From positions 32,061 to 76,285 of the forward strand of contig CAYGBO010000001.1 of NCBI GenBank assembly GCA_964348145.1: a stretch of 44,225 bases of DNA. Reading direction: 5' to 3'. This DNA is from an uncultured Methanomassiliicoccales archaeon. Lineage in GTDB: Archaea; Thermoplasmatota; Thermoplasmata; RBG-16-68-12. A program made the translations under genes and the position numbers. Shown here in pieces: positions 1 through 28,474 of this stretch. The notes under the pieces were generated by a model. That model worked only from the letters and a program-made list of their open reading frames with translations. It had not been told where the DNA came from and searched no databases. Each line of letters starts with the position of its first letter. Position 1 is the stretch's first letter.

Positions 1-1024
1 CGGTGAGCCCCCCGTCTCCGAGGATCGTATAGCGATCCTTGTTCATTTCGTGGGCATGGACCAGCGCGTCAATGACCTCGTCATCCGTGACTGCAAGGGC
101 CCGCGCCGTCGTGGGGGCACCGATCGCGAGGAGGGCATCCCGCACCTGCTGCCAGTTGCCGCCGTGTAGGTACATCATCATGATCGTGCCCACACCGCAC
201 TGCTCCCCGTGCAGAGCTGGTTTCTTGGCAATCCGGTCTAAGGCGTGGGAGAACTTGTGCTCGCTTCCCGAGGCGGGTCGGGACGATCCTGCGATGGACA
301 TGGCCACTCCGGAGGAGACGAGGGCTTTGCACACGAACCACGCGCTCTCCTCGAGCCTCGGCTTGATGGTCCCCGAGTTCTCAATCACCAAGCGTGCCGC
401 GAGCTCGCTTAGAGACGCGGCGTAGGACGAATAGTGCTCGTTCCTCAGGTTCCTTGCGAGGGCCCAGTCCTTCACAGCCGTGAGATTCGAGATGATATCT
501 CCGCATCCGGCGGCCAGGAGTCGGAACGGGGACTCTGCAATGATGCCCGTGTCCATGATGACCGCGACGGGCGTGTGGGTGGCGAGGCTGACTTTCTTCC
601 CGCCTTTCACGATGGACGCGCGGGACGACACGACGCCGTCGTGGCTCGCCGCCGTGGGCACGCTCACGAAGGGCACGCGCGCATTGAAGGAGGCACACTT
701 GGCCACATCAATCGCCCGGCCCCCGCCCACACCCACGGCGAAGTCGAGATCGGCCTTGTGGATCTGCTCCTCGCCAGACCGCACTTGCTCCCAAGTCGCC
801 CCCGGGATCAGGAACTCATGGACTTTCATCTTGCGCGAAGCGAGTTGCGACGCAACCGTGTCCCCCGCGATCTTCATCGTCAATTCGTCGGCTACGAGGA
901 GGGCGCGCCGGCCGAGCTTGAGGGAGTGGCAAACCTCTCCGACCTGCAACAGCGCATCGTGACCTACGACCACCTTCCGGGGCAACTCCATGGTTTTCGT
1001 CTTGGAGAAGGACTCCACGTCCAT
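1..1024 (-). CDS. egsA: sn-glycerol-1-phosphate dehydrogenase (archaeal lipid backbone enzyme); C-terminal end cut by window edge
   Basis: Absent from the ORF track because there is no stop in the window. My reverse-strand translation from the ATG at 1024 reads MDVESFSKTKTMELPRKVVVGHDALLQV...GVGGGRAIDVAKCASF...VSVPTAASHDG...SGSEHKFSHALD, the iron-ADH-fold G1PDH pattern. An alternative ATG is at 991. Confidence 0.85.
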   Translation of the reverse strand, partial: MDVESFSKTKTMELPRKVVVGHDALLQVGEVCHSLKLGRRALLVADELTMKIAGDTVASQLASRKMKVHEFLIPGATWEQVRSGEEQIHKADLDFAVGVGGGRAIDVAKCASFNARVPFVSVPTAASHDGVVSSRASIVKGGKKVSLATHTPVAVIMDTGIIAESPFRLLAAGCGDIISNLTAVKDWALARNLRNEHYSSYAASLSELAARLVIENSGTIKPRLEESAWFVCKALVSSGVAMSIAGSSRPASGSEHKFSHALDRIAKKPALHGEQCGVGTIMMMYLHGGNWQQVRDALLAIGAPTTARALAVTDDEVIDALVHAHEMNKDRYTILGDGGLT

Positions 1025-1134
1025 GGTTGTCACGCGATCACGTCACCGGGGCGGCTCGAAAGGGATGTCCCTACTTAAAGGTGAGGCCCTCGTTCTCGGA
1101 TTGTTTCATCGTTGACCCCGACCACGGAACCTTT

Positions 1135-3321
1135 ATGCTCGGGAACCTGGAATGGCCGATGTCGATGCCCTCCCTTTTCACCCTCCTCGTCCCCGCTTTC
1201 GCAATCCCGAAGGACTTGTCGAAGGGCGAGGTGGCCTTCCTTGAGGGCAACGCCCTGTGCGACTCCCGCCGATACGCGGATGCTGTCCCCTACTACGAAC
1301 GAGCGATCGCCCTGGGTTATGTGGACCATGTCGTGTGGAACAACAAGGGCGTTGCCTTGGACAGCCTAGGTCGGCACGAGGAGGCCGTGGATGCCTACCG
1401 GGAGGCCCTCGCCCGAAAAGCGGACTATGAGATCGCATGGTATAATCTCGGGAACGCTCATGCCTACCTCGGGGAGCTCGGCCGGGCGATCGAGGCGTAT
1501 GACCGGGCCCTGGCCCTGCGGCCCGACTACGCGGACGCTCTGTACGACAAAGCCCTGGCCCTTTCTCGTCTCGGCCGTACGAAGCAGGCCCTGTCGGTCT
1601 ACGAGGATCTGAGCCGGCTCGACGCGTCGAACGCGGATGCCTGGACCCGAAGGGGGCAACTTCTCGAAGAGCTGGGCGAATCCCGGGAGGCCGCGGAGGC
1701 CTTCAAGGCCGCCGTAGGCCTGAAGCCGGACGAGGAGGCGGCATGGACGGGCCTTGGGGGTGCCCTGTACTCCCTCGAACGATACGAGGAGGCGATCGAC
1801 GCCTACGATAGGGCCTTGACCCTCAGCCCGCTCAACGAGGAGGCGTGGAACAACAAGGGTTTCACGTTCTTCATGCTCGGCATCCACGACGAGGCCCTCC
1901 GTTGCTATGAACGCGCCCTCGACATCAACTCGCGGTACAAGCAGGCATGGTACAACAAGGGCTACACGCTCCACGGGATGAATCGTCTCGAAGAAGCTGT
2001 CAAAGCGTACGAGAGGGCGATCGAGCTCGACGAACGGGACGAAGTCCTCTGGAACAACCTGGGCAATGCCCTCTATAACCTCGGACGATACCAAGAATCG
2101 ATTCCGTATTTCGAGAGGGCCATCGAGGTGAACCCTAAGTATGAGATTGCCTGGAACAACATTGGGAACGCGTTGAACAAGATGGAGAAGCACGCGGAGT
2201 CGATTCCATACCATGACAGATCCCTTGAGATCAAACCGGACTTTGACTACGCCCTGTATGCGAAAGGCCACGCGCTGGACAAGCTCGGCCTCCACGAGGA
2301 TGGTCTTGAGCTCATCGTCCAGAGCCTCGAGCTGAACCCCAATTATGACCACGCGTGGATGGCGAAGGCCGAAGTCCTTCGCAACCTGGGTCGCCTCGAC
2401 GAAGCACGGGACGCCCTCAACAACGCCCTCATTCTGAACCCGGGCTACGATGAAGCGTGGATTGTGCGCGGGAAAGTCCTGGAGGAAATGGGGAACGCGC
2501 TGGAAGCGGAACGCTGCTACGAGGAGGCGCTTCGGTGCTTCGAATCGGGGCTGGAGCTGGAACCGGGGAATGCGGAGATCCTGGCCTTGAAAGGCCGTCT
2601 CCTCGAGGATCTGGCGCGCGCCGAGGAGGCCCTTGAGGCATATTCGGCGGCTGGAGTCCGAGCGACCCGTGCGGAACCTTTCCTCCGGATGGCGGACCTC
2701 CTCCTCCAGATGGGACGATTCGAGGAAGCCGTGGTCGCGGCGGACCGGGTGCGGGAGACATTCCCGGACGAAAGCAAGGGATGGATCCTCGCGGGTCGTG
2801 CCAGGCGGCTCCTGGGCCGGGTAACGGAGGCACTCCCAATGCTGGAACGGGCCCTTGGTTCCTGGGACGGTCCCGAAACGCGCGTCGAGCTTGCCGAGGT
2901 GCTCCACGCCCTCGACCGACCGGACGACGCCCTCCGGGTTCTCGAGCCCGTGGAGGCGCCGGAGTCGGGTGCGTACCTACTACGCGCCAACATCCTCCAG
3001 GCCACGGGTCGAACCGACGAAGCTATCGCGGCCTGCGATCGCGCCGCCCGTGAGGCCAGGGCGCCCCGTGACATCGCGTACCATCGGAAGGGTCGGATTC
3101 TTCTCCAAGCAGGTCGGATGAAGGAGGCGTTGTCGGCCTTGGATGCCGCGATCGGGCTAAACGCCGAGGAGGAGGACTACTGGTGCGACGCCGCCCTCGT
3201 CCTTCGGCAGCTAGGCCGGGAGGAACGGGCTCGAAGGTTGCTCCAGCGGGCCTTAACTATCAATCCCGAATGCGAACGCGCCAGGCAACTCCTCGTCTCA
3301 AGGGCCTGGGAGCCCTCGTGA
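1135..3321 (+). CDS. large TPR-repeat protein with N-terminal hydrophobic segment
   Basis: The 764-aa ORF 1027..3321 is filled with about 34-aa repeats (..A..Y.RAL.L.P....AW.N.G.AL...G...EA...). The hydrophobic N-terminus is MSMPSLFTLLVPAFAI. The TTG at 1027 abuts the egsA start, so the ATG at 1135 is the more plausible start. Confidence 0.85.
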   Translation: MLGNLEWPMSMPSLFTLLVPAFAIPKDLSKGEVAFLEGNALCDSRRYADAVPYYERAIALGYVDHVVWNNKGVALDSLGRHEEAVDAYREALARKADYEIAWYNLGNAHAYLGELGRAIEAYDRALALRPDYADALYDKALALSRLGRTKQALSVYEDLSRLDASNADAWTRRGQLLEELGESREAAEAFKAAVGLKPDEEAAWTGLGGALYSLERYEEAIDAYDRALTLSPLNEEAWNNKGFTFFMLGIHDEALRCYERALDINSRYKQAWYNKGYTLHGMNRLEEAVKAYERAIELDERDEVLWNNLGNALYNLGRYQESIPYFERAIEVNPKYEIAWNNIGNALNKMEKHAESIPYHDRSLEIKPDFDYALYAKGHALDKLGLHEDGLELIVQSLELNPNYDHAWMAKAEVLRNLGRLDEARDALNNALILNPGYDEAWIVRGKVLEEMGNALEAERCYEEALRCFESGLELEPGNAEILALKGRLLEDLARAEEALEAYSAAGVRATRAEPFLRMADLLLQMGRFEEAVVAADRVRETFPDESKGWILAGRARRLLGRVTEALPMLERALGSWDGPETRVELAEVLHALDRPDDALRVLEPVEAPESGAYLLRANILQATGRTDEAIAACDRAAREARAPRDIAYHRKGRILLQAGRMKEALSALDAAIGLNAEEEDYWCDAALVLRQLGREERARRLLQRALTINPECERARQLLVSRAWEPS

Positions 3322-3386
3322 GGAGGTCTGCAGGGTTCGCGTCCGGTCACCGTCGGTCCTCCCGAGAGGTTATCTTTCTGGGTCCC

Positions 3387-3896
3387 ATGCCTTCTCTCAT
3401 GGGCATCAAGGTCCGCCGGCGGGTGCGTCTCCGACGCAGGGACTGGATTCACTGGGCGACGCAGCTCGCCTCGGACTACGCGATGGAGACGCGTTCGGAG
3501 GAAACCCCCATTGACCGGGCAGAGGCGGGTGACTTGCGCCTGCTGTTCGAGGGGCACACGCCGTTTGCCATCCTCGTCGAGGACAAGATCGCGCCTACGG
3601 CCCGGGAACTCCTCGCCCATCCGGCCCGACGACGTCATGTGACTGTGGACATGGGGGCCGTGCCTTTCATCTACAACGGCGCGGACGTGATGGCACCCGG
3701 CATCGTGGACGCCGACCCGGCGATTCGCGCGGGGGATCTTGTGTGGGTCCGGGACGAACGGAATCGGCAGCCCATCGCCGTGGGCCAGGCTGAGATGGAT
3801 GGTCTGACGATGGTGCGGGAGCGAAAGGGGAAGGCGATCAAGACGATTCATCATGTGGGAGACGATATCTGGCGGCTTGGCGAGGAGGAGCCGTGA
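3387..3896 (+). CDS. PUA-domain RNA-binding protein (Tma20/COG2016-like)
   Basis: The C-terminal VTVDMGAVPFIYNGADVMAPGIVDADPAIRAGDLVWVRDERNRQPIAVGQA...GKAIKTIHHVGDDIW matches the PUA pattern. The ATG at 3387 was chosen because the upstream part of ORF 3183..3896 overlaps the TPR gene and is Arg-rich junk. Confidence 0.8.
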   Translation: MPSLMGIKVRRRVRLRRRDWIHWATQLASDYAMETRSEETPIDRAEAGDLRLLFEGHTPFAILVEDKIAPTARELLAHPARRRHVTVDMGAVPFIYNGADVMAPGIVDADPAIRAGDLVWVRDERNRQPIAVGQAEMDGLTMVRERKGKAIKTIHHVGDDIWRLGEEEP

Positions 3897-3939
3897 AATC
3901 TCTGCGGATCGGTGTCTCAATCCTGTGTCGTCGGCTCGT

Positions 3940-4911
3940 TCAGGCCCAGTACGGTGATTTCAGGTACTTGTACACGGACATGACTGCGGTGACGGCCTCG
4001 CCGCATCCCGTCACGATTCGCTTGTCCTTGCCCGGGTAGGAAACGATGTCTCCGCAGGCAAAGATTCCTGGGACCGATGTGGACATGTCGGCGTTCACCT
4101 TGATGAGACGCTCCCCTTCCAGTTCGATCCCCCATCGCTTGAGGGGGGTGATCTTCGGCTCGAAGCCGATATTGACAATCATCGCATCGATCTCGAACTC
4201 GGATTTCTTCAGGGTTCGGTTATCGTGAACGACCGCCCGTCGCGCACGGTCGTCACCTTCGATGCTCGTGACCTCTGCGTTGTACATGACCTCGATGGGT
4301 GACTTCAGCACCGCTTCCACATTCTTCTCCATAGCCCGAAATTCGCCCCGTCGGTGGACGAGGACTACGCTCTTCGCGACTGCGACGATCTCGAGGGCGA
4401 TTTCCAGGGCGCTGTCGCCCCCGCCGACGACAATGACGCGTTGATCCTTGAATTCGCGACGGTCACGCACCCTGTATTCGACGCCATGGCCCTCGAACTC
4501 CGCTTCCCCCGGGATTCCGAGCCGTTTCGGCTCGAAGAGTCCCATCCCCATTGCCAGGATAATCGCGTAGGTCTCATACCGGTTTCCCGGGCGCGTAATC
4601 ACTCGAAAGCTCGATCCATGTCGCTGGATGTCTGCGACCTCTTCGTTGCGGATTTCGGAGCCGCTTTCTCGTGAATGGATCGCGAACAGCTCTCCGAGTT
4701 CGCCTCCTTCAATGGCCATATAGCTTGGATAGTCGTAGACGGATTTCGTGGGGTACAGCCACGCGAGCTGTCCGCCCACGTCCTGGGCCTCGAGGATCAA
4801 GGTGGACAGCTTGCGAGTACGCGCATAGATTCCCGCCGTAAGCCCGGCAGGCCCGGCGCCCACGATGGCCACGTCGAAGGCCATAGCGCTGGCGACAAAG
4901 TGCCTTCCCAT
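3940..4911 (-). CDS. thioredoxin-reductase-fold flavoprotein without CxxC (ferredoxin-NADP reductase type 2-like)
   Basis: FAD Rossmann motif DVAIVGAGPAGLTAGIYA, NAD(P) motif VIVVGGGDSALEIA, and C-terminal GIFACGD. No redox-active CxxC lies between the two motifs. The probable true start is the ATG at 4884 (MAFDVAIVG), about 30 nt downstream of TTTAAA at 4911-4917. Confidence 0.85.
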   Translation of the reverse strand: MGRHFVASAMAFDVAIVGAGPAGLTAGIYARTRKLSTLILEAQDVGGQLAWLYPTKSVYDYPSYMAIEGGELGELFAIHSRESGSEIRNEEVADIQRHGSSFRVITRPGNRYETYAIILAMGMGLFEPKRLGIPGEAEFEGHGVEYRVRDRREFKDQRVIVVGGGDSALEIALEIVAVAKSVVLVHRRGEFRAMEKNVEAVLKSPIEVMYNAEVTSIEGDDRARRAVVHDNRTLKKSEFEIDAMIVNIGFEPKITPLKRWGIELEGERLIKVNADMSTSVPGIFACGDIVSYPGKDKRIVTGCGEAVTAVMSVYKYLKSPYWA

Positions 4912-5088
4912 TTAAACGTTGTTAGCAGACTTCGTCCGGAGCTCGTCAACGCCGGGAGGGCAATAATTATTATGTGATTACGTTTATCTCTATAACGCCC
5001 GCCCGTCTTTCCGCGTGAGTCGCAATCCGGGACCGCGATACTTTTAAATTTCCGATTCAGGATACAGAACCCGCAGAAGGGATCTGGG

Positions 5089-5475
5089 ATGGCTTTCATC
5101 AAGAAGCCCTTTAAACGGTTTGGCGAAGGCGGCGCGGCTGCCGAAGTTGACGCGTACATTGACCTCGGTGAACTGAATTTCGAAGGCGAATCCGGCGTCC
5201 TAGGGGAACCCGTGGAGCATTTGGTCAAAGTCGCGGAAATCTACCGGTACGAAGATATCAACGACCTGACGACCCACGTCTACAACGGGAACCTCTTGCT
5301 CGTGGACTACACCGCCGTCGCGTCGGACGAACTCGCGCTCAAGCGAATCACAGCCGAGCTGAAGAGCGCGGTCCGGGACTGCGGCGGGGATGTCGCCGTC
5401 GTGGGCAAGAACATGATTCTCGCGACCCCCGCGAGCATCAAGATTGATCGCGCGAAAATCAAGGGCAATTTCTAG
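5089..5475 (+). CDS. sepF: archaeal cell-division protein SepF
   Basis: The 128-aa product has the archaeal SepF layout: YIDLGE..., VKVAEIYRYEDINDLTTHVYNGNLLLVDYT, GGDVAVVGKNMILATPASIKIDRAKI. An AT-rich element CTTTTAAATT lies at 5041-5050 upstream. Confidence 0.85.
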   Translation: MAFIKKPFKRFGEGGAAAEVDAYIDLGELNFEGESGVLGEPVEHLVKVAEIYRYEDINDLTTHVYNGNLLLVDYTAVASDELALKRITAELKSAVRDCGGDVAVVGKNMILATPASIKIDRAKIKGNF

Positions 5476-5481
5476 CCCGGA

Positions 5482-6351
5482 TCAAGAGGGGCGGCCCCAT
5501 CGGCGCCGCGATGGCACAGCGTAGGGCTTCGCGACGAATCGCTTATCGCTGTAGCCGAGGAGGAAGTAGTCCCTCGAATGATTCGTGTGCCGCATCTTCG
5601 CGCACCGGATGAGCAGTTGAACTCGTCCTTCCCCCGCGCCGCTAAATCGGAGCTCGAGAACTCCGTCCACGAGTTGGTCTATGTCCGGATGGGACTCTTC
5701 TGCGCCCGATTCCGTTCGATCCTTTACGAGGAACGCAGTGACGCCGATGGAACGGAGATAATCGAAAAAGTGAAAGAGATTCTCTCGAACGTGGTCCATC
5801 CGCGCGGCCGCGGTCAGCGCGTCGATGGAGTCGATCACGACGAGCCCAAAGGGCTCCCGTTCCCTGCGGCGTGTGAGATAGTCTCGGAGCACCTGGATCC
5901 AGTCTCGAACTTCCTCGGCTCCCGAGTGTTCGAGCCGGAGCCGGCCGATGTCTACGATGAAATCCTCTGTATCGCCGAGGCCCAGGCGGGTCATCGTCTC
6001 TTGGATCGAATCCCGGCTCTCCTCGAGCGTCACGTACACGCCCCGCGTCCCCCCCGCGCGGTTCTTGGACAGGATGTAGAGTGCAAGGGAGGTCTTCATT
6101 GCGCCCGTCGGGCCCGCGAGGAGGACTACGTGCCCCCGGGGAACGCCTCCCTCCATGGCGGGGTCAAGCCCCTGCACGTGGGTCGGTAGTCGCCCTCCGG
6201 TCTCGGTCGGCCGGGATGCGAGGGCCCTCACCTGCTCCTGGAGCCGACGGACCTGGTCCCTCAGCTCGCGGACCTGCTCCTCTACGTCCTCTTCGCGGGA
6301 TTCTCTAGGCGCGCCTCCCGCGGGCTCAACCCACTCCACGCCCCGTACCAT
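5482..6351 (-). CDS. KaiC/RadA-like single-domain ATPase paralogue 1, with N-terminal coiled-coil extension
   Basis: HVQGLDPAMEGGVPRGHVVLLAGPTGAMKTSL (Walker A variant), YVTLEES, Walker B LVVIDSIDAL, and C-terminal RCAKMRHTNHS. The N-terminal EEQVRELRDQVRRLQEQVRAL is heptad-like. Confidence 0.85.
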   Translation of the reverse strand: MVRGVEWVEPAGGAPRESREEDVEEQVRELRDQVRRLQEQVRALASRPTETGGRLPTHVQGLDPAMEGGVPRGHVVLLAGPTGAMKTSLALYILSKNRAGGTRGVYVTLEESRDSIQETMTRLGLGDTEDFIVDIGRLRLEHSGAEEVRDWIQVLRDYLTRRREREPFGLVVIDSIDALTAAARMDHVRENLFHFFDYLRSIGVTAFLVKDRTESGAEESHPDIDQLVDGVLELRFSGAGEGRVQLLIRCAKMRHTNHSRDYFLLGYSDKRFVAKPYAVPSRRRWGRPS

Positions 6352-6496
6352 TATGACATAAAACGCTACTCTGAGAGGTTAAGTTTTTGCCTGAAGCGGA
6401 AGGGGAAGGGCGAAGGTTGATAATCAATCGAGCGCAGCATCTCAGAACCGTTAAATAGCTCCTCCCTACAATAGCACGCGGCCCAGGAGGCGACCC

Positions 6497-6928
6497 ATGG
6501 CAATCAAGACGAAGCCGGAGCGTGGACCCGCCGGGACCCTCACCGTCGACGACCTCACCCGGGCGATCCGCAACTCGATCGACCGGGCGGGGATGAAGGA
6601 CGAGGAGGCGCGTGCCATGGCCCAGCACGTCCTGAATTTCTTTGGCTACTCTGAACGGATCATCGACAACGTCCTCGAGCCCGAGGATCGCGACGCCTTC
6701 TACATGCTCGAGGATTCGGGCATCCTGACGACGGAACGGGAGGAGACGACCCTCTACGACGGCCGCGAGTGGAGGATTCACTACTGGATGTTCCGAAAGG
6801 AGCGAATTGCGGAGCTCGTGGAGGCCCAAAGAGCGAAGGAAGAGGCGGAGAGAGCGGCGTCCGTCTACGACGACGTACCCGATGACCTCTGGGTGACCCG
6901 GAAGCCGAGGCCGCCCGCGGAGCACTGA
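6497..6928 (+). CDS. conserved-looking hypothetical protein, divergent partner of KaiC-like paralogue 1
   Basis: The 143-aa ORF has protein-like composition (MAQHVLNFFGYSERIIDNVLEPEDRDAFYMLEDSGILTTEREETTLYDGREWRIHYW). I recognise no catalytic motif. It shares a 145-bp divergent intergenic region with 5482..6351. Confidence 0.6.
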   Translation: MAIKTKPERGPAGTLTVDDLTRAIRNSIDRAGMKDEEARAMAQHVLNFFGYSERIIDNVLEPEDRDAFYMLEDSGILTTEREETTLYDGREWRIHYWMFRKERIAELVEAQRAKEEAERAASVYDDVPDDLWVTRKPRPPAEH

Positions 6929-6938
6929 GTCGGCCGCC

Positions 6939-7352
6939 TTAGCCGAAGGCGAGTTGGAGTGTCCCTCCGGACCGGCGAACCAGATCAAAAGCGAGGGAAT
7001 GGGGCAGGAACATTCGGCCTTCGCGATAGGGGAACGCAGATCCGAGGGACTCAAGAGCCCGCAGGGCCTTCGCTCCGACCGCGTCCGTGAGATAGGCGGC
7101 GTCCGCCATGTCGCCGGAGACGAACAAGGTAATCGGTAGCCGCAAGCGCTCCGTCTCCTCCTCGGACAAAACGGATGCAAGTCGCTCGAGCCATGAGCGG
7201 TCAAAGCGGTGCTCCTCGCCCGATCGAGTCCGACACACGGGTGGGTTTTCGGAGAGAAGCCGTGCGAGGCTCTTCTTTTCAACGACGAGACCTTCGTTCA
7301 GCCGGCCCACCTCGAGGGCGAGCCATCGGTCCATTCCGCCGGGGGATGTCAA
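6939..7352 (-). CDS. UPF0216/DUF61-family archaeal protein
   Basis: The layout RLNEGLVVEKKSLARLL...RTRSGEEHRFDRSWLERLASVL...LRLPITLFVS...FLPHSLAFDLVRRSGGTLQLAFG matches my memory of the UPF0216 family. The start is either TTG at 7352 or ATG at 7334. Confidence 0.7.
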   Translation of the reverse strand: MTSPGGMDRWLALEVGRLNEGLVVEKKSLARLLSENPPVCRTRSGEEHRFDRSWLERLASVLSEEETERLRLPITLFVSGDMADAAYLTDAVGAKALRALESLGSAFPYREGRMFLPHSLAFDLVRRSGGTLQLAFG

Positions 7353-7515
7353 GGGAATGATTCAGGGTGGTGCTTGGTGAAAAGCCTTTGGTTTCCTTCA
7401 GGTGTCGGGGCCGGAGGAGCGCGAGTGCAGATGCCCCTCGCTCGTCCTTCGGACCTCAATCGGTCCCCCGAAACCTATTTCGGTCCCGCTCCCCTTCTCG
7501 GGCGGGGGAGAAGCG

Positions 7516-8484
7516 ATGGCCGCGACCGTGACCTGTCCGAGGTGTGGTGCGACGAGCCAGGTTGGCTATCAGTTCTGCACGAACTGCGGGGGGGTTCTCG
7601 CCGGCGAAACGGCGCCTCCCGCGGGACCTCCCAGCACCCAAGCGCCGCCTCCGCCGCCTCCGCCCTTCCCCGGCGCCTACACCACACCTCCATACGGCTA
7701 TCAAGCCCCGTGGGAGTATGAGCGGCACAAGCAGATCGACAGGACGAAGACAGGGATCCTCCTGTTGCTGATCGGAACGCTCCTCTCCTGGATTCCCTTC
7801 GTCAACATCATCGGCTTTCTGCTCATGTTCATCGGCGCCATTCTCGTGATCCTGGGCCGGAAGGTCTTTGGGGCGACCCATTCACGCAACGTCGTCGTCT
7901 CAATCGTCATTTTCATCGTGGGGATCGCCGCGAGCTTGGCGCTGGGGGCCATCTTCACGCTGTCCATCATTCAAGGGCTGCTCGGTCAGTCGATTAGTGC
8001 GGAGGCCTTGAGGTCCGCCTTCGACACGCTCTACATCGGCGGGATCATAGTAACCGCATTTTCAGGAATCGCTTCCGTCTTGTTCACCTACGCCCTGCAG
8101 AATCCGACGGGACGTATGCTGCTGTGGGCTGGGTACGGCGCGGCCATCGCAGTTGATGTTGTCCTCTACGCCATCTTCTCTCCCCAGATCGAAGCTGCGA
8201 TCCAGGACTTCCTGGCTTCGGGCAGTGTGGATCCTTCCCCTCTCCTGGCCCTTCAGAATCAGGCCCAGGTCGCCGGGCTCCTGGAGGCGATGCCCGCAGC
8301 CCTCTTCTCGGTGGCCACGTACATCGCATGGTCCCGAATCAACCGTGGCGAGATACCCGCCGCCCCTGCGGCAGCTCCGGCGCCGCCCATGTATGGACAG
8401 CCACCGCCGCCGCAGGTCCCACCTACCGGGACTCCGCCGCCCCAGACCTCCCAGGAGCAACCTCCGCCCATACACCCGAAGTGA
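7516..8484 (+). CDS. zinc-ribbon membrane protein with Pro-rich linker and Pro-rich C-terminal tail
   Basis: MAATVTCPRCGATSQVGYQFCTNCGG (CxxC...CxxC), then PPPPPPPPFPG, then about 6 hydrophobic helices, then PAAPAAAPAPPMYGQPPPPQVPPTGTPPPQ. The ATG at 7516 is preceded by GGGGGAG. Confidence 0.75.
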   Translation: MAATVTCPRCGATSQVGYQFCTNCGGVLAGETAPPAGPPSTQAPPPPPPPFPGAYTTPPYGYQAPWEYERHKQIDRTKTGILLLLIGTLLSWIPFVNIIGFLLMFIGAILVILGRKVFGATHSRNVVVSIVIFIVGIAASLALGAIFTLSIIQGLLGQSISAEALRSAFDTLYIGGIIVTAFSGIASVLFTYALQNPTGRMLLWAGYGAAIAVDVVLYAIFSPQIEAAIQDFLASGSVDPSPLLALQNQAQVAGLLEAMPAALFSVATYIAWSRINRGEIPAAPAAAPAPPMYGQPPPPQVPPTGTPPPQTSQEQPPPIHPK

Positions 8485-8508
8485 TTCGCCGGCAAAACCC
8501 GAAGTCCT

Positions 8509-9228
8509 TCACTTCTTCCGCGAGATCACATGGCTCACGAAGAACTTCGAGCCGTCGTGGTTGAGAGCGAAGGCACTGTGGTCGTGGTCCATCCAGCGCA
8601 TCTTGATCGTCCGCACCCTCAGCTGGACCTCCGTGTCGCCCACTTCCACCTGACGCAGATGCAGGATTCCGTCGCACAGGAAATCCTCGCCCCACTGGGT
8701 CAATCGGGAGGCGCCGAAGGGCGTCTCCGCGATGATGAAGGTGGTCAGTCCGAGCTCCTTGAGCGCACCTAGGAAGTGAAACATCTCCCGCCGGGGGGCT
8801 TTCATCTCTCCCAGGGCGTAGAGGGCCTCCAGGCTGTCGAGACACAGCACGCCATATCCCGTCGCCTCGACGGCTTCCTTCACGATTTCGAGCAGGATAT
8901 GAACCCAGTCCTTGGATCCTTCGGAGCGGTGGAGACCTTTCCTCAGCTGGCCCATGTCGAGGAGGTAGATGTTGGACTCATGGAGCTCCTCCATGCCCAT
9001 TCTCGCAGCGCCTCTTCGCAGGCTCTCCGCGTCCTGTTCCAAGCTAATATAGAGCCCTTTCGTCCCGTGCTGCCGGGCGTTCTCGTGCATCATCCAGAGG
9101 ATGAGGGAGGTCTTCATCGTCCCCGGCGTGCCCGCGATGAGGACGGTGCTGCCCTGGGGAATCCCGCCACCCAGGGCCTTGTCGAGACCTTCTACGTGGG
9201 TGCGGAAAAGGGGAATCTCGACTTCCAT
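8509..9228 (-). CDS. KaiC/RadA-like single-domain ATPase paralogue 2
   Basis: THVEGLDKALGGGIPQGSTVLIAGTPGTMKTSL, YISLEQD, Walker B VLCLDSLEAL, RTIKMRWMDHD. I estimate it is about 40-45 percent identical by eye to paralogue 3. Confidence 0.85.
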   Translation of the reverse strand: MEVEIPLFRTHVEGLDKALGGGIPQGSTVLIAGTPGTMKTSLILWMMHENARQHGTKGLYISLEQDAESLRRGAARMGMEELHESNIYLLDMGQLRKGLHRSEGSKDWVHILLEIVKEAVEATGYGVLCLDSLEALYALGEMKAPRREMFHFLGALKELGLTTFIIAETPFGASRLTQWGEDFLCDGILHLRQVEVGDTEVQLRVRTIKMRWMDHDHSAFALNHDGSKFFVSHVISRKK

Positions 9229-9250
9229 ACATCCCTACGACGAAATCAAG

Positions 9251-9258
9251 ATTATAAA
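9251..9258 (-). promoter_or_regulatory. TATA-like box for KaiC-like paralogue 2 (implies a leaderless or near-leaderless mRNA)
   Basis: ATTATAAA on the plus strand (TTTATAAT on the coding strand) is centred about 27 nt upstream of the ATG at 9228. It is an isolated AT-rich island in GC-rich DNA. Confidence 0.45.
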
Positions 9259-9361
9259 GCCCTGGCGTCTTCGTTATCGTGGCGGATACTCTGGAATCCA
9301 GCATGCGAAAAGCCTTGGCAACCCTTTTCTAGGCCCTGGTTGTTTCCCTTGTCGAGAAGGG

Positions 9362-10138
9362 ATGGTGAAACGTGACGATGCGGCCCGCAAGCTCCTCCTG
9401 TGGGAACTCGAGGGCCGTGGCGGCCTTGTAATGGAGGCGATGCTGCGGCATCCCGATCTGAACTTGGCCGAAGCCGTCGACTTGATCGAACAGGAGAACC
9501 CGAATCTCTCGTCCCAGGGAGCGTCGCCCGAGGAGGGACCCATGGCTGAGAGCCCCAAACCGCGCCCCACATCCGAGCTGGAGGCCCTTGAGCAGGAGTT
9601 CAAGACGTTCCGCCACCTCCTTCCTCCCGCCGAGGCGAAGGAGATGGAGGCCCGACTACGGGAGATCGCGCGCTCCCGGGATCGAGCCGCGATCGTGGCG
9701 ATGCGTCGTCGGCTGCGGGCGTTGTCTCTCCAGGCTGCGTTCTGGTCTGAATTCGCCTCGCCCCGCAGGGAGTCGAACGCCATGGCCCTCGTGATTCTCA
9801 GCCGCGGGGGCGATGTCCTCGCGAAGAGCGGGGAGACGTCGTACCTCGAGCAAGACTCCGTCGTCGCGTCGATTCGGAGGGAGTCGGGTCGGCAGTCCCA
9901 GGGCACCTATGTGATGCACCTGCCCGTCGGACGTCTCGTCCTCATGAACGGGAAGAGCACCTCCATTGCCGCCCTCTTCCGCCGGGCGCCCGGGAAGGAC
10001 GTTGTGTCCGTCCTCACAAAGACCGTCGAGGCGATCGAGGAGAACCGGGCCGTCGCCTCGAGGACCTTCGGGGACAACCGGCTGGGGGCGAAGTACGCAG
10101 AGGCTCTCCTGAAGCTTCTTCAGAAGACCTCACTCTGA
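9362..10138 (+). CDS. hypothetical protein with helical N-terminal half and putative Roadblock/LC7-like C-terminal domain
   Basis: ATG at 9362 (MVKRDD...). The upstream part of ORF 9101..10138 overlaps the KaiC-2 gene. The C-terminal MALVILSRGGDVLAKSGE...DSVVASIRRE...GTYVMHLPVGRLVLMNGKSTSIAALFRRAPGKDVV resembles the beta-alpha-beta pattern of Roadblock/MglB domains. This is pattern recognition only. Confidence 0.55.
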   Translation: MVKRDDAARKLLLWELEGRGGLVMEAMLRHPDLNLAEAVDLIEQENPNLSSQGASPEEGPMAESPKPRPTSELEALEQEFKTFRHLLPPAEAKEMEARLREIARSRDRAAIVAMRRRLRALSLQAAFWSEFASPRRESNAMALVILSRGGDVLAKSGETSYLEQDSVVASIRRESGRQSQGTYVMHLPVGRLVLMNGKSTSIAALFRRAPGKDVVSVLTKTVEAIEENRAVASRTFGDNRLGAKYAEALLKLLQKTSL

Positions 10139-10831
10139 GATCGCCCGGGTGATTTGGAAGCGGCCATTCTCTCGGATGAGGGCAAAGTACCCCTGCTCGT
10201 GGTGGGTCCGGCGCATCTTCACACAGCGGAGACGCAGCTGGACGTCCGTCTCTCCCTTCTCGAAGTGGCGCATATACAGGATGCCGTCGGAGAGGAACTC
10301 CTCATCGTACCGGCCCAGGCGGCCATTGCCCCCCATCGCCACTTCGGAGATGAGAAAGGTCGTTGCCTCGAGGGAACGGAGGAAGCCGAAGAAGTGGAAC
10401 AGGTCTCTGCGAGGATGCTCGAGCCGCGTCAGGCTGTACAAGGCCGCGAGGCTGTCCAGAGCGACGAGGTCGAAGCCGTTGATGCGTACCCGCTGCTCGA
10501 TGTACTTCTGCAGGATGTCGAGCCAGTTCTTGGACAGTTCCTCATCCTTGTGCTCAAGCCGGATCTTCCCGATGTCAAGGATGTACAGCTCGAGGTCGTC
10601 CAGGTCTCCCATGCCGAGTTCTGTCATCGCGGCCCGCAGATCCTCTTGGCTCTCCTCGAGGGAGATGTAGAGGGCCTTGGCGCCCGCCTTGGCATTCTCG
10701 TAGAGGATTGAGAACGTCAGCGCCGTTTTCATCGTTCCCGGCGTGCCAGAAACGAGGACGACGGAACCTCTCGGGATGCCGCCTTCGAGAGCCTTGTCAA
10801 AGCCTTCAACGTGGGTCTGAACGCGATCCAT
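10130..10831 (-). CDS. KaiC/RadA-like single-domain ATPase paralogue 3
   Basis: THVEGFDKALEGGIPRGSVVLVSGTPGTMKTAL, YISLEES, Walker B LVALDSLAAL, RCVKMRRTHHE. Its 3' end overlaps the convergent gene 9362..10138 by 9 nt. CTATAATA at 10861-10868 lies about 34 nt upstream of the start. Confidence 0.85.
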   Translation of the reverse strand: MDRVQTHVEGFDKALEGGIPRGSVVLVSGTPGTMKTALTFSILYENAKAGAKALYISLEESQEDLRAAMTELGMGDLDDLELYILDIGKIRLEHKDEELSKNWLDILQKYIEQRVRINGFDLVALDSLAALYSLTRLEHPRRDLFHFFGFLRSLEATTFLISEVAMGGNGRLGRYDEEFLSDGILYMRHFEKGETDVQLRLRCVKMRRTHHEQGYFALIRENGRFQITRAISE

Positions 10832-10944
10832 GGGGCGACGGGCGAACGAGCCGGCTCGCGCTATAATAGAATGACGTGAAGATTATCAAGGTCGATAGTG
10901 CCCATCAGCGATCCCGCGGGCTCCCTAGGCGGCTGTCGGAGTTA

Positions 10945-10953
10945 GCTATATCC
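10945..10953 (+). promoter_or_regulatory. TATA-like box for carS (implies a leaderless mRNA)
   Basis: GCTATATCC is centred about 28 nt upstream of the TTG start at 10977. Confidence 0.45.
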
Positions 10954-10976
10954 GACCCACGTCCTTTCGCACCACG

Positions 10977-11531
10977 TTGGCCCTCGAGGCGATCCCTCAA
11001 GCTCTCTGGTTCTTCCTGCCCGCCTACGTGGCGAATCCGATGGCCGTCGTCTTCGGGGGTGGCCTCCCGATCGACTTCGGGCGAAGCCTCCGGGACGGTG
11101 GGCGGCTTTTCGGGGACGGTAAGACATGGCGAGGCTTGGTAGGCGGCGTCGCGTCGGGCGCGATCCTCGGTCTCGCTCTTTCGACGTTTGCGGACGGCCT
11201 TGCACCGCCATGGTCCTTCGGCTCCTCGGCGACCGCCCTCGGGATGTCCACCCTCCTCGCCCTGGGCGCTCTCCTGGGGGACCTGGGGGGCTCCTTCATC
11301 AAGCGCCGCCTGGGGAAGCCCCGGGGAGCGCGAACCCCCCTGTTGGATCAGTACGACTTCGTCGTGGGGGCCCTCCTTGCCGCCGCCCTCGTGCCTTCCT
11401 GGGCCGATCCGCGTTTCTTTCAAGGTGACGCCCTCCTCGGCCTCGTCGCCATCATCTTCATTACGCCCGCTCTGCATCGCGCGGTGAACGTCCTCGGCTA
11501 TCGGATTGGGAAGAAGCATGAGCCTTGGTGA
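10977..11531 (+). CDS. carS: CDP-archaeol synthase
   Basis: FFLPAYVANPMAVVFGGGLPIDFG...DGGRLFGDGKTWRGLVGGV...LGDLGGSFIKRRLG is the CarS (DUF46) pattern. It is a multi-pass membrane protein. Confidence 0.85.
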   Translation: MALEAIPQALWFFLPAYVANPMAVVFGGGLPIDFGRSLRDGGRLFGDGKTWRGLVGGVASGAILGLALSTFADGLAPPWSFGSSATALGMSTLLALGALLGDLGGSFIKRRLGKPRGARTPLLDQYDFVVGALLAAALVPSWADPRFFQGDALLGLVAIIFITPALHRAVNVLGYRIGKKHEPW

Positions 11532-12057
11532 CCTGAATCGGCCCGCTCTTGTCGAGGCGCTCCGGACCTGCGGCGCCCTCCGGCTAGGTACGTTCACCCT
11601 GGCGTCGGGCAAGACGTCGACGTATTACGTGGATGTGAAGCGGGCGGTCACGCGTCCCGACATACTTCGGACGATCGCGGACGCCATGGCGCCCTACGCG
11701 AAGGATGCGGATCGGATTGCGGGCGTGGAGCTAGGCGCCGTGCCCATCGCCGCCGCCCTGAGCCTCGTGTGCGGGAAACCCTACGTGATCGTGCGGAAGC
11801 GGACCAAGGAGCACGGCACGAAGAAGGAATTCGAGGGCGAGCTGGTCCGAGGCGATCGGGTCCTTTTCGTCGAGGACGTCGTCACGACCGCGGGCACCCT
11901 GCGCGGTGCTATCGGGCGCCTGCGCGCCCACGGCGCGGTCGTGGACAAGGTCGTCGCGGTCGTAGACCGGGAAGAGGGAGGTCGCATGGCCCTCGCGGAG
12001 CTTGGGGTGCGGCTTGACGCGCTCCTCCGGGGGAAGGATCTCCTCGAAGGAGCATGA
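11518..12057 (+). CDS. pyrE: orotate phosphoribosyltransferase-like PRTase
   Basis: GALRLGTFTLASGKTSTYYVD..., the PRPP loop VLFVEDVVTTAGTL, and a size typical of archaeal PyrE. The ATG at 11518 overlaps the carS stop. The TTG at 11506 is an alternative start. Confidence 0.8.
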   Translation: MSLGDLNRPALVEALRTCGALRLGTFTLASGKTSTYYVDVKRAVTRPDILRTIADAMAPYAKDADRIAGVELGAVPIAAALSLVCGKPYVIVRKRTKEHGTKKEFEGELVRGDRVLFVEDVVTTAGTLRGAIGRLRAHGAVVDKVVAVVDREEGGRMALAELGVRLDALLRGKDLLEGA

Positions 12058-12147: not shown

Positions 12148-13383
12148 ATGCTTGGAACCGCCGTCCCGAAGGAGGCCACCCCAAAGGTCCCGAGGGCGCT
12201 CACTGTAACGGAACTCGCGCGTATCCTGCGAGACACCATTCAATCAAATCCTCTCCTGTCCCGCATCCTGGTGCGCGGCGAGGCAAGCAACGTCGTGCGC
12301 ACGCCCGCGGGTCATCTGTTCTTCACCCTCAAGGACGCGACGGCCCAGGTGGCGTGTGCGATTTTCCGCGACGAAGCTGAATCGCTCTCCTTCGATCTCG
12401 AGGATGGGATGGAGGTCGTGGCCTCGGGGGACGTGGACCTGTACGCGCGCCGAGGCGAGGTGCAGCTCGTCGCGCGTGTCCTCACCCCGATTGGCACGGG
12501 GGCATTCTGGGCGTCATTCCAGAAGACTCGCAGGAAGCTGCAGGCGGAGGGCATCTTCGACCCGAGTCGAAAACGCCCCCTCCCCCCTTTTCCACGACGC
12601 GTCGGCATCGTGACCTCTGAGGCGGGTGCCGTCGTCCATGACATCGTCACGATCCTTCGGCGAAGATATCCCCTTGCGTCCGTCGTCGTGGCGCCCGCCC
12701 GTGTGCAGGGATCTGAGGCACCGGCGAGTCTCCGGAAGGCGCTCCTTAGTCTCGAAGGTCGGGTCGACGTGATCATCCTGGCCCGTGGGGGCGGCTCGCT
12801 CGAGGACCTGTGGTGCTTCAATGACGAGGCCCTTGCGCGGGCCGTGGCCGACTGTCCCGCTCCGGTCGTGAGCGCGGTGGGGCACGAGACGGATGTGACC
12901 ATTGTCGACTTCGCGGCCGATATTCGAGCCCCGACGCCCAGCGCGGCCGCGGAACTTGTGACCCCGGAAGCGACGGAACTTACGGTCCGAATCCGTTCCG
13001 CGAGAGGAGACCTCATTGATGCCCTGCAAGATCACTTCCGGGAATGGGCGACCGCTCTCGCCCGCTTGAGCGACCGATTATCGCCCCTCGGAATGCGGCG
13101 AGATCTCGCGTCGAACCGCATCCGCACACGAGCCCTCGGCGAGACCCTGACGAGGTCGGGTCGTCGGGAGCTCGCACGCTGTCGCGAGGGCCTTCGGTCG
13201 CTGGGAGAGCGTCTCGAGGTCCTCGGCCCGATGGCGACGCTGAGGCGAGGGTACGCCATTGTGATGCGGCCCGATGGCACGGTCGTTGCACGAGCCGGCG
13301 AGGTCCGGCGGAACGAGCGCCTCATCGTGCGCCTCCAGGACGGCCGACTTCATGTTCGCGTAGACCAAAAGGAGGTATCATAA
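12148..13383 (+). CDS. xseA: exodeoxyribonuclease VII large subunit
   Basis: LTVTELARILRDTIQ..., an OB-fold region, RVGIVTSEAGAVVHDI, ILARGGGSLEDLWCFNDE, VSAVGHETDVTIVDFAADIRAPTPSAAAELV. Confidence 0.85.
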   Translation: MLGTAVPKEATPKVPRALTVTELARILRDTIQSNPLLSRILVRGEASNVVRTPAGHLFFTLKDATAQVACAIFRDEAESLSFDLEDGMEVVASGDVDLYARRGEVQLVARVLTPIGTGAFWASFQKTRRKLQAEGIFDPSRKRPLPPFPRRVGIVTSEAGAVVHDIVTILRRRYPLASVVVAPARVQGSEAPASLRKALLSLEGRVDVIILARGGGSLEDLWCFNDEALARAVADCPAPVVSAVGHETDVTIVDFAADIRAPTPSAAAELVTPEATELTVRIRSARGDLIDALQDHFREWATALARLSDRLSPLGMRRDLASNRIRTRALGETLTRSGRRELARCREGLRSLGERLEVLGPMATLRRGYAIVMRPDGTVVARAGEVRRNERLIVRLQDGRLHVRVDQKEVS

Positions 13384-13606: not shown

Positions 13607-16600
13607 TCAACTCGCGTCGGGATCGTCCGGAGGGGGCTCCCCCTCGTCCCCCCATACGGTCCACCGTCGCGTGTATCCAACGCCGCCTCGGGCCTGGCTG
13701 TGCCCCTCCCCTCGTCTCGCATCTCGAACGTCGACGTCCACCCTGGGTCCGGGAGCTGTGACGTCGGAAAGATCCTTGCACATCGCGACCAGCCTCTCCT
13801 CGGTGTATCCAAAAGGAGACAAGAGGGTCTGTCCCGCGCGGCATAACAGACGCACGTACTCCCACACATCTGGCTCCTCGTTGCCCTCGAGGAACTCCGC
13901 GACGCGTACCTTGCGCCACGACTCTCGCGACCGCGCGTCGAGCAACACGTACCGCACGGTCTCCCCGGGCTCGACCGTGTACCCGCGGTCCGCGAGCTGC
14001 TTTAAGGCTGCGGCGGTCGCCGTGAGGACGACGTATTCCGGGAGGGCACGGGACACGTTCTTCGTGAGGATGAACTCGTGCACTGGGATTGCACGGTCGA
14101 AGACGCGCTTCGCGGTCCACCGCAGGATGTTCACGACGCTCGGAATGCGCTCGCGGAACTCCGTCGCGCTCGACGCGAGGCTGAGTTCCTGAAGCATCGC
14201 CTCCTGGGCGATGTTGATGAACTCAGGGGTGTCGTGCTTCCGCAGCTCGATTCCGCGGAGCTTGAACTCCCCGTGCTCGAAGAGGCCATAGTACCGGTTC
14301 AGAGCCCCGACACCTGTCGTCTTGCACGGGAGGAACACGATCCACTTGTAGCGGCCTTCGAGTTCAATGAGCAGGCCAATGGAACCCGCGATGTGCTCGC
14401 GGACCTTCTCGATGGGGTCCGCACCCGGCTTGGACCGGAGCCACACGGAGTCCACGATGCCATGGACGACCTCGTAGCCGTGGGACTCCGCGATTTCCAT
14501 CGTGCGCACGAGGATGTCCCGCGCGTACGCATTGATTGCCTCGTGGCACTCGATGCGGCCGAAGCGAGCGTTGGAGTATCCGGTATATCCGAAAGCAGTT
14601 GTGGGTCCAGATCCCTCCCTCGATGGCGAAACCCGGCCATGCGCCATCCACTTTGAAGCAGTAGACGAAATCGCTCTGCGGTCTCGTCCTCCTGACACGT
14701 TCCACTCTCGCGGTGAAGAGGCCTGGGCTCTCTCCATTGACGCGAGGATTCCCGAGGAGGGGCACGCAATTCCCCACCTCGAGTTCCGAGGCTTGCTTCA
14801 CTTCAAGCCTGCGGTCGCGAATGACATAGCACGGGTGGTCTTCCGTGAAGAGAACCTCATCGTCGTTCGAGAAACGGACGGCTACCATTTCCTCGGGAGC
14901 GTCGAAGCGGAAGAACCTCTGAACGGAAACGTCAACCGGTCGGAAGGCTGGACTCAGCCCAAGAGCGCTGAGTCCGTCGGGAGCGAGCCCTGAACCCGTC
15001 CCGGAAAAATACGGATCCACCACCTTTTGAATCTCATCGACACGGAATTCTCCATTCTGCCTGTACGGGACGAGCGTGTTGCCATCGAGACACGTGACGA
15101 GGAGCCACTTTAGGATCGTATCTCGTCCCTGATAGACCCCTTGGAGCGGTCCCGGTTCTTTTTTCATTCGCTTGTAATAGCGCCGTCGTTCGATGACCGG
15201 TTTCAGGACTCGGGGGATGAGTCCGATTCGGCGCGTGCAAAGATGGTAGGTCAGCTCGGGGATGGGCAATCCGTCTGCCGTACAGCATGCGCAGTCCAAC
15301 GTTTCCGGCGAGACGTTGTATTTCACCATGATGCTGGGATACAACGCGGAGAAGTCGAGTTCGTAGAGGCCCTCGTGCAACCCCACTTCGGGCTCGAAGA
15401 TGAAGCCGCCTCGGTCACCCCGCAGGAGGTCCTCGGCATTCTTGAAATCCTCTGGGCGGTTCTTCTTCCACAGGACAAGGCATCCATCATCGTACGCTTG
15501 GTTCACCTGCATGGCCGTGATTGCCGTCCCCGGCGTGAGCCGTGCCTGCTCTTGCGGTGTCAGCGTGGAGAGGCGTGATAGTTCCGCGAGTCCTGCGAAA
15601 TCACTCTCCCGATACGCGAAGTGCCCGCGATCGAGATGCAGCCGTCCGCGCAAGATGTACTGCCCCGGCTTGTAGACGATTTTCCCGTACGTGAAGTAGG
15701 ACTTCGCCTTGCGTTCTGCGAACCGATCGCGGTCCCGTCCGAGCTGCAAGTCCACCCCGAGTCCTGCGGCCTTCCGCGCAAGGTAGGGCATCGTGAACGC
15801 GTCCCCGCCGTCCGTCAGGAGGACGTCGGGATCCTTCGAGCGCACGAGTTCCTCGATCCCCTTCAGGATGGACTCCTCATCTCCGTCGACCTCGTCGTCG
15901 TCCACGTGGGCCCCGAGGAGGCGGTCGATCATGCGCGGGATGCCCATCGGGTTGTGCACGTGGAGATCCAAGAGGGATTTCCGTAGGGAAGGGAGGGGAT
16001 AATCGAGGGCGAAATGTTCCTCCTCCGGCGCCCATCGTCCGTTCGCGTAACGCACGAGACCCATCGGGAAAATCCCGTGCTCCATCGCATACCGCTGGCT
16101 GAACCTCAGGTCCACGTTGAACAGCCGGTGGTCCACGTAGCCACCGTTCGAGTCGAGGATGTGCGCGACCCCGCGAATATCACGGTAGTGCCGCGGGACG
16201 ATCTCCAGGACCGGTGAAGGCTCGTCGTCCTCAAGGGCGATTCGTCGGGCGATTTCGCGGACCTCGCGCACGCCGTCGAGGATTTCGATCCGCCGCCGGA
16301 TCGCGGGTAGCTCGGAAGGCGTTGCATGGAGGAAAAACGTCGGCACGAACCGCGAATCCTCGATGCGGTGGGCCCTGGACTCGTTCCAGAGCCAGAGGAC
16401 CATCGAATCGCGGTCGTAATCCCCGTAGGCGTCGATGATCCAGCCGTGCGTGAGATCTCCCCCGTCCCCACGACGAGGGACCCGCGCCTCTTGGACCCAT
16501 GCCGGGGAGGGGACCGTGAAAGTACGCGCGAGGCGGGCCTCATGGGACGTGATCACCCTGCGCGCCCCCACGGCGATCCCGCGCCACCCGTACCACCGCC

Positions 16601-28438: not shown

Positions 28439-28465
28439 CCTCGCGGTCGCAACGGTGACCCGCCT

Positions 28466-28474
28466 ACTTATAGG
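28466..28474 (-). promoter_or_regulatory. TATA-like box of the mre11-rad50-nurA-herA operon
   Basis: ACTTATAGG on the plus strand (CCTATAAGT on the coding strand) is centred about 32 nt upstream of the ATG at 28438. Confidence 0.5.

Follow-up and report, generated by a model that had tools for sequence, protein, structure and literature searches.

What brings three related KaiC-like genes into the immediate company of the cell-division gene sepF in an uncultured Methanomassiliicoccales archaeon? The window analyzed here, a 44-kb stretch (65% GC) of contig CAYGBO010000001.1 whose genes were called from an open reading frame (ORF) listing and profile searches (Pfam, NCBIfam), carries three minus-strand genes that we call K1 (5482-6351), K2 (8509-9228) and K3 (10130-10831), the first of them tail-to-tail with sepF (5089-5475, plus strand). 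The explanation that best accounts for the whole, to which we give a probability of about 45%, is that this sepF-linked array is a lineage-specific signaling hub with cell division as its most likely output. For FtsZ/SepF-based division in archaea hardly any regulators are known, and a KaiC-like gene tail-to-tail with sepF across divergent Thermoplasmata is a concrete, testable candidate for one.

Three KaiC-like paralogues and their link to sepF

The family identity of the K proteins is directly established. The three ORFs lie on the minus strand where the original prediction had placed them, and each encodes one KaiC domain (PF06745) covering profile positions 1-2 to 214-215 of 231, with E-values of 6.5e-33, 9.3e-36 and 7.5e-37 and scores of 114.5, 123.8 and 127.3 bits for K1, K2 and K3, respectively, against a gathering cut-off of 26.6. 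Their description as clearly paralogous single-domain KaiC-type proteins of the RecA superfamily holds as well: pairwise protein identity is 47% for K2-K3, 43% for K1-K3 and 34% for K1-K2, and the shared motifs quoted in that prediction are present in all three. No similarity among the three genes is detectable at the DNA level. Judging by their sequences, they are old paralogues and not recent lineage-specific duplicates, a prospect that the prediction had itself raised. K1 also bears the N-terminal extension ascribed to it, which is helical and coiled-coil-like, and its helix (about residues 20-46) is kept in all K1 orthologues. The best solved-structure matches are KaiC CI domains (E 1e-34, full-length alignment). 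Of the three copies, K3 is the nearest both to KaiC CI and to the genes that distant Thermoplasmata have in single copy.

SepF (128 aa) is assigned by PF04472 (E 5e-13; 49.4 bits against a cut-off of 27) and matches the SepF-like structure of A. fulgidus (3zie, E 1.6e-12). On inspection its N-terminus, MAFIKKPFKRF, looks amphipathic, at the place where a membrane-targeting helix is expected. The gene converges on K1 with exactly 6 nt between the stop codons, as had been claimed.

Uncultured Thermoplasmata living in soils and sediments, 'Euryarchaeota archaeon RBG_16_68_13' among them, are the source of the K2 homologues. A scan with an alignment of K2 relatives, covering a single genome for each GTDB species, yielded 80 loci, all from Thermoplasmata/Thermoplasmatota, and 13 window proteins were mapped onto these loci with tblastn. 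The more distant loci (L047-L080) hold a single KaiC-like gene, 45-49% identical to K3, that is convergent with sepF in 32 of 33 cases, the contig ending just past the gene in the exception (L055). Sampled from the SepF side, 6 of 6 Thermoplasmatota SepF loci have a convergent KaiC-like gene. A gene for a PUA-domain protein, conserved beside sepF in distant Thermoplasmata, comes next after sepF in the single-copy loci where the contig allows, and an orthologue of a TPR-repeat protein (36-70% identity) adjoins it in 41 of 50 loci. The window has the same block, beginning with the TPR-repeat gene (1027-3321, plus strand; 764 aa, Pfam TPR families) and continuing with the PUA gene (3183-3896, plus strand; PF01472, E 5e-21), which probably starts later than its ORF since orthologues match only the C-terminal 50-80%. 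On one distant contig among the six sampled from SepF (L085, positions 1-5000), integrase, resolvase and HNH genes are inserted directly upstream of sepF, displacing TPR-PUA from it, and sepF still adjoins the KaiC-like gene. From this synteny, the ancestral unit is therefore TPR-PUA-sepF facing one KaiC-like gene, and the window holds a lineage-specific triplication. Since the distant Thermoplasmata carry a single sepF-convergent copy, the array is an old lineage-specific expansion of a sepF-linked gene, and comparison across the loci supports an adjacency to sepF older than the triplication.

In the loci closest to the window (tier 1: L001-L033, L035, L041 and L046), the gene order is XseA-PyrE-CarS-K3-P258-K2-ZnTM-DUF61-DUF6015-K1-SepF-TrxR-PUA wherever the contig allows, P258 being a 258-aa protein and ZnTM a Zn-ribbon membrane protein. 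This 13-gene order is fixed in about 30 species-level genomes; K3-P258-K2 is retained in about 31 and K1-SepF in 26. DUF6015 is the most conserved gene of the cluster (84-90% identity among tier-1 orthologues), ahead of SepF (78-85%), K3 (74-85%), K2 (71-83%), P258 (65-72%), K1 (55-71%) and ZnTM (38-55%). The array is confined to one subclade of Thermoplasmata. Further out, two loci (L039/L042) have the order CarS-K3-DUF6015-K1-SepF with no K2; the DUF6015-K1 pair persists in a more distant lineage; carS adjoins K3 across L001-L042, and the thioredoxin-reductase-like (trxR-like) gene between PUA and sepF is kept across the same range and is not there in the single-copy lineages. The neighbors of the K genes are thus non-random, contrary to another prospect that the prediction had raised. 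The neighborhoods of other paralogues (L034, L043 and L045) show no recurring partner. In the lineage of L036/L037 an XPD/Rad3-like helicase gene (10674-12608 of L037) takes the place of ZnTM and adjoins K2.

When a neighbor-joining tree is rooted with KaiC CI, K2 and K3 come out as sisters, the single-copy group is the sister of that pair, and K1 lies at the base on long branches. K1 holds the ancestral sepF-side position and shares 'KMRH' and 'HED' with the single-copy genes; it may be their fast-evolving positional orthologue, K3 being the other candidate. The L036/L037 arrangement suggests a tandem duplication of K3 as the origin of K2, with P258 coming to lie between the two at a later stage. 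The ancestral gene would have duplicated twice in the lineage of the window: K1 would have kept the sepF position, gained its N-terminal helix and become divergently paired with DUF6015; K3 would have become divergently paired with carS; and K2, the sister of K3, would have lost one catalytic Glu and come to be flanked by P258 and ZnTM.

The P-loop and the catalytic residues

The canonical Walker A motif GxxxxGK[ST] is absent from K1 (GPTGAMKT), K2 and K3 (both GTPGTMKT). Their motif reads GxxGxMK[ST], with Met where the canonical Gly precedes the Lys and with Lys and Thr retained; GTPGTMKT of K3 aligns with GTPGTGKT of KaiC 8zn5. The substitution is clade-wide. An exhaustive HMMER search with K3 gave 157 representatives (50% identity) at E <= 1e-30, and among the best 150 the Gly position is occupied by M, L, Y, F or R in 137 (Met in 113) and by the canonical Gly in only 4, while 8 are fragments without the motif. 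Met is found in every K1, K2, K3 and single-copy orthologue, and a few other paralogues have Leu, Phe or Arg. Clade members that carry an organism name are all Thermoplasmatota, although most cluster members carry none.

The remaining motif states are likewise directly established. Walker B is present in all three proteins (VVIDS, CLDSL and ALDSL), and the Walker A Lys and Ser/Thr, the Walker B Asp (hhhhDS) and the K-M-R motif, which corresponds to the Lys/Arg sensor of KaiC, are kept in every paralogue group. K1, K3 and the single-copy genes retain the catalytic Glu pair (EE). K2 alone departs from this: its orthologues uniformly read EQ (LEQ instead of LEE), the second catalytic Glu having been lost. 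Because the catalytic residues are conserved, we infer that K1 and K3 still carry out nucleotide chemistry and that hydrolysis is impaired in K2. The deviant Walker A and the lost Glu of K2, which had both gone unnoticed, bear on the label "ATPase" given earlier to all three. A clade-wide change of the P-loop Gly to Met with the other catalytic residues kept amounts to a natural experiment on the tolerance of Walker A.

A proposed signaling hub with a possible division output, and other readings

Archaeal KaiC-like ATPases have been proposed as signal-transduction hubs with varied partners (Makarova et al. 2017; COG0467 / arCOG01171-01175), as relayed in the citing papers PMC5847659 and PMC4858521. 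The original prediction had invoked this idea, which the array fits, but which is already published. Like the hubs as those papers describe them, the K proteins have a single RecA-like KaiC domain, occur as several paralogues per genome, have variable fused or neighboring putative input/output modules (here Zn ribbon, TPR and Roadblock-like), and include degraded catalytic sites; they differ from those descriptions in the clade-wide Gly-to-Met Walker A, the tail-to-tail sepF position and the fixed three-paralogue alternating array. In the searchable literature, in which Makarova et al. 2017 was covered only via citing papers, we found no description of such a fixed alternating array or of the Met P-loop variant, and no paper on a SepF/KaiC-like link in archaea. 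According to published surveys, the gene context of sepF varies among archaea (PMC8178401), and Pende et al. 2021 call it poorly conserved in the legend of their Supplementary Fig. 13.

If the array is a small KaiC-like signaling hub in this published sense, K1-K3 would assemble into rings with nucleotide bound where subunits meet, as KaiC CI and other KaiC-like proteins of archaea do. K1 and K3 would hydrolyze nucleotide, while K2 would bind it and hydrolyze it poorly, and would serve either as a slow or locked state or as one component of mixed rings. The nucleotide state would in turn control the binding of adaptors, namely the Roadblock domain of P258, Zn-ribbon and TPR modules, and DUF6015. 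The most likely output would be control of the assembly of the SepF/FtsZ divisome or of its membrane coupling, a division output being favored because the adjacency to sepF predates the duplications. A precedent for a single-domain protein that regulates a larger machine through nucleotide- and phosphorylation-dependent binding is ArlH, as presented in bioRxiv 10.1101/2021.03.19.436134. With its presumably impaired K2 and Roadblock-like neighbor, the array offers a compact test case for the signaling-hub proposal. In a bolder form, which we consider unlikely, the Met-P-loop KaiC-like proteins would be dedicated regulators of SepF/FtsZ division in Thermoplasmatota: the ancestral protein, and K1 in the window, would bind SepF or the co-conserved TPR protein in a nucleotide-dependent manner, and K1, K2 and K3 with their Roadblock-like and Zn-ribbon membrane adaptors would act as a relay of three ATPases that ties division to membrane or lipid status (carS). 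If true, archaea would have a divisome regulator of a hitherto unrecognized class, one with an atypical P-loop.

Domain fusions could also connect the clade to Zn-ribbon and TPR partners. A CxxC...CxxC Zn ribbon opens 19 of its 29 long members, and in many of these long forms TPR repeats precede the KaiC-like domain; the soil Thermoplasmata lineage to which the window belongs has one TPR fusion of 588 aa, and both modules occur as stand-alone genes at this locus. The connection is suggestive only.

Several observations weigh against a division-linked hub. The K genes and their adjacent genes are all convergent or divergent and none is co-directional, and because of this no K gene shares a transcript with a neighbor; with co-transcription not possible, the evidence for linkage is conserved adjacency only. 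The co-occurrence of each ATPase with its partner, which the prediction had proposed to check, is seen as conserved adjacency but is incomplete: ZnTM is poorly conserved and absent from 7 related tier-1 loci, and in two K2-bearing lineages (L036/L037) P258 is absent and K3 and K2 stand in tandem on one strand. The P258 model is moderately confident and its structural matches have weak E-values, and the fusion evidence is weak because Zn ribbons and TPR are promiscuous modules. The P-loop position at which Met has replaced Gly hardly ever varies, and the change might prevent nucleotide from binding. Both flanks are common to all 38 single-copy loci (with HD and RtcB on the far side), which for that reason count as about one lineage rather than as many independent observations. 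Outside the phylum, the sepF of Archaeoglobus has no KaiC-like neighbor; the gene after it encodes a ZPR1 Zn finger. In agreement with this, the legend of the same supplementary figure of Pende et al. 2021 lists ZPR1 and names no KaiC- or RecA-type neighbor of sepF. In Archaeoglobus (L081/L082), sepF overlaps the start of this same-strand ZPR1-type Zn-ribbon gene, which fits the 'Zn-fing' neighbor listed by Pende et al. 2021.

Many of these points feed the main rival, frozen synteny, in which generic KaiC-like regulators or housekeeping proteins sit beside functionally unrelated neighbors in a young lineage or a rarely rearranged genome. We rate it as rather unlikely. The lack of operons, the conservation of the unrelated housekeeping genes pyrE, xseA and trxR-like in the same block, the shared flanks of the single-copy loci, which suggest generally stable synteny, and the absence of the pairing in Archaeoglobus all agree with it. 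Yet the KaiC-like/sepF junction survives between lineages whose SepF proteins are only 46-54% identical and in which the genes beyond the KaiC-like gene differ completely (DUF6015 versus HD/RtcB), and it survives the mobile-element insertion beside sepF described above. Nor does stability explain the layout of the cluster itself: from PUA to carS (3183-11531), 11 consecutive genes alternate in strand, and ten switches in a row are unlikely by chance when the rate elsewhere in the window is 6 of 23 adjacencies. This alternation is conserved in about 30 related genomes. Were the adjacency frozen synteny only, the finding would reduce to a lineage-specific expansion of a known family.

Two further readings are less likely than either. 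That the K proteins are inactivated KaiC-like (iKaiC) scaffolds, static adaptors in which the Gly-to-Met change abolishes nucleotide binding, seems improbable: inactivated KaiC-like domains are a recognized category (PMC5847659, citing Makarova 2017), the Walker A Lys is preceded by Met instead of Gly in K1-K3 and the single-copy orthologues, and K2 also lacks one catalytic Glu, but the strong conservation, throughout a large and old clade, of the Walker A Lys and Ser/Thr, the Walker B Asp, EE (in K1, K3 and the single-copy genes) and KMR is not expected if catalysis were lost. More improbable still is an accessory role in recombination, with the K proteins as RadA paralogues of the aRadC/RadB/'RAD55' type. 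NCBI names one homologue 'RAD55 family ATPase', there are weak matches to RecA, RadB and Sms, the crenarchaeal RadA paralogue SSO2452 is among the solved-structure matches, the XPD-like helicase adjoins K2 in L037, and the window also contains xseA and Rad51/RadB-like, HerA, Rad50-like and Mre11-like genes. These repair genes are, however, not adjacent to the K genes and lie outside the block common to distant lineages; KaiC matches are 25-30 orders of magnitude better than those to RecA, Rad51 and RadB, and the RadB (16-29 bits against cut-offs of 172-278), RecA (18-27 bits against 325) and Sms scores all fall far under the curated cut-offs.

A KaiABC-type circadian or hourglass timer and an ArlH-like regulator of an archaellum or pilus are excluded by domain architecture and gene context. 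Cyanobacterial KaiC does give the best sequence matches, and with its CI domain (PDB 8zn5, 5jwq and 4tl6) K3 shares Walker B, the EE pair, an 'EEF(V/L)sD' segment and a K-x-R motif. Circadian KaiC, however, has two tandem domains (CI+CII, about 500 aa), whereas the K proteins have one domain in 233-289 aa, Met in the P-loop and no CII phosphorylation sites, since K3 resembles CI in having Glu and Phe at the positions aligned with S431/T432. None of the nine neighboring proteins matches the KaiA or KaiB families. PH0186 (2zts), PH0284 (2dr3), SSO2452 (2w0m) and ArlH/FlaH resemble the K proteins as single-domain members of the same superfamily of about 230-250 aa, but the similarity is much weaker (E 1e-15 to 1e-17) and the genomic context different. 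There is a weak ArlH/FlaH match (K3, E 4e-13), with a best NCBIfam score of 49.5 against a cut-off of 215, and the window has no archaellum (arl) or pilus (pil) genes. For the K proteins, the NCBIfam models of the curated KaiC subfamilies of archaea and those of ArlH, RadB, RecA and Sms all score below their cut-offs. GvpD was rejected on domain architecture, curated cut-offs and context, and a role in anti-phage defense was also set aside, PADLOC giving only a marginal mad8 match for K1 and K2 (E 6e-5, about 20 bits) and none for the partner proteins.

Neighboring proteins, promoter regions and the rest of the window

P258 (9362-10138, plus strand) is lineage-specific, with 197 homologue clusters, all close. 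The Roadblock-like C-terminus once attributed to it finds weak agreement at the level of fold and none at that of Pfam, where no family matches at E <= 0.01, including Roadblock PF03259. In the AlphaFold2 (AF2) model (pLDDT 69), a bundle of helices at the N-terminus is joined by a disordered, Pro-rich linker to a helical hairpin, after which comes a C-terminal domain (about residues 140-256; beta-beta-alpha-beta-beta-beta-alpha-alpha) with pLDDT of about 75-80. A predicted alpha-beta-beta-alpha-beta-beta-beta core at about residues 108-206 has the order of strands and helices expected of Roadblock. The top Foldseek matches in the PDB are consistently Roadblock, MglB, LAMTOR and longin proteins (E 2e-3 to 2e-2; target-normalized TM-scores mostly 0.44-0.57), led by Asgard Roadblock2 (9jq8), M. 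xanthus MglB (6hjm/6h5b) and LAMTOR, which P258 may resemble in its predicted core. A Roadblock/LC7-like C-terminus is thus plausible but not secure. P258 differs from Roadblock-LC7 proteins in matching no Pfam family and in its added N-terminal helical domain, Pro-rich linker and two C-terminal helices; unlike Roadblock platforms, it has no small GTPase gene nearby, its neighbors being KaiC-like P-loop proteins.

The original prediction had placed sepF, the 143-aa protein, ZnTM and P258 correctly and had overlooked one gene, which encodes a 137-aa DUF61/UPF0216 protein (6939-7352, minus strand; PF01886, E 4e-22). Lying between DUF6015 and ZnTM, this gene is the actual divergent partner of ZnTM. 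It is conserved in the cluster, convergent with DUF6015, and its product has no informative PDB match. The 143-aa protein itself (6497-6928, plus strand), divergent from K1 as described, is not uncharacterized as to family, since it matches DUF6015 (PF19479, E 3e-33). It has no PDB sequence match, and its single-sequence AF2 model (pLDDT 53) gave no Foldseek match below E 0.26; a winged helix, guessed from a pattern of helix and beta-hairpin, is unsupported. ZnTM (7516-8484, plus strand), convergent with K2, is indeed a Zn-ribbon membrane protein, Pfam and hydropathy agreeing on an N-terminal Zn ribbon (DUF7577-type) and at least four hydrophobic transmembrane segments in a multi-pass protein with Pro-rich linkers. 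The trxR-like flavoprotein gene (3940-4911, minus strand) was called from its ORF and translation. Beyond K3 lie the gene for CDP-archaeol synthase (carS, 10977-11531, plus strand; PF01864, E 8e-46; NCBIfam PRK04032, 193.6 bits against a cut-off of 148), PyrE (11506-12057, plus strand) and XseA (12148-13383, plus strand).

Convergent gene ends abut or overlap, at -9 to +24 nt. The 9-nt overlap of the 3' ends of P258 and K3 is as first reported, and the same stop-to-stop distance of -9 nt recurs in 23 of 31 loci; across orthologous loci the median gaps are 2 nt for K1/SepF and 3 nt for DUF61/DUF6015. Together with the strand alternation, such abutting ends imply that transcripts would overlap at their 3' ends or share bidirectional terminators. 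The divergent pairs (K1/DUF6015, K2/P258, K3/carS, DUF61/ZnTM and trxR/sepF) are separated by 133-177 bp with conserved TATA-like boxes. Each K gene has an upstream 30-mer with a GC content of at most 0.33, and only 0.2% of the 30-mers in this GC-rich window reach 0.35 or less, which bears out the AT-rich promoter island proposed for each. In the K2/P258 region (9229-9361) a TTTATAAT box lies about 25 nt upstream of the K2 ATG, and a CGATAACG is conserved. The center of the K1/DUF6015 region (6352-6496) holds the perfect palindrome TTGATAATCAA (6416-6427), whose 9-mer GATTATCAA recurs upstream of K3 at 10881-10889, within the K3/carS region (10832-10976). These are the only two exact copies in 44 kb, and a one-mismatch copy at 9250-9258 overlaps the K2 TATA box. 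Orthologous loci keep the 9-mer; statistically it is of marginal significance in the window and it was found upstream of 0 of 32 single-copy genes of distant lineages, and on these two counts we rejected it as a shared operator of K1 and K3. Searches of the locus found no noncoding RNA, tRNA or repeat elements.

Elsewhere in the window, the minus strand at 22286-29464 groups genes that encode HerA (DUF87), an SMC ATPase resembling Rad50, a phosphoesterase resembling Mre11 and a 270-aa protein without a family assignment, probably an archaeal HerA-Mre11-Rad50-NurA repair cluster. A separate Rad51/RadB-like gene is found at 18689-19435 (minus strand; PF08423, E 1e-8), and a second 764-aa protein, encoded at 14364-16658 (minus strand), has weak family-B DNA polymerase matches only. 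Divergent from the repair cluster, the gene at 29588-30520 (plus strand) encodes a 310-aa protein with a weak match to the Tubulin/FtsZ GTPase domain (E 2e-7, under the gathering score), which could be a divergent FtsZ/CetZ-like protein.

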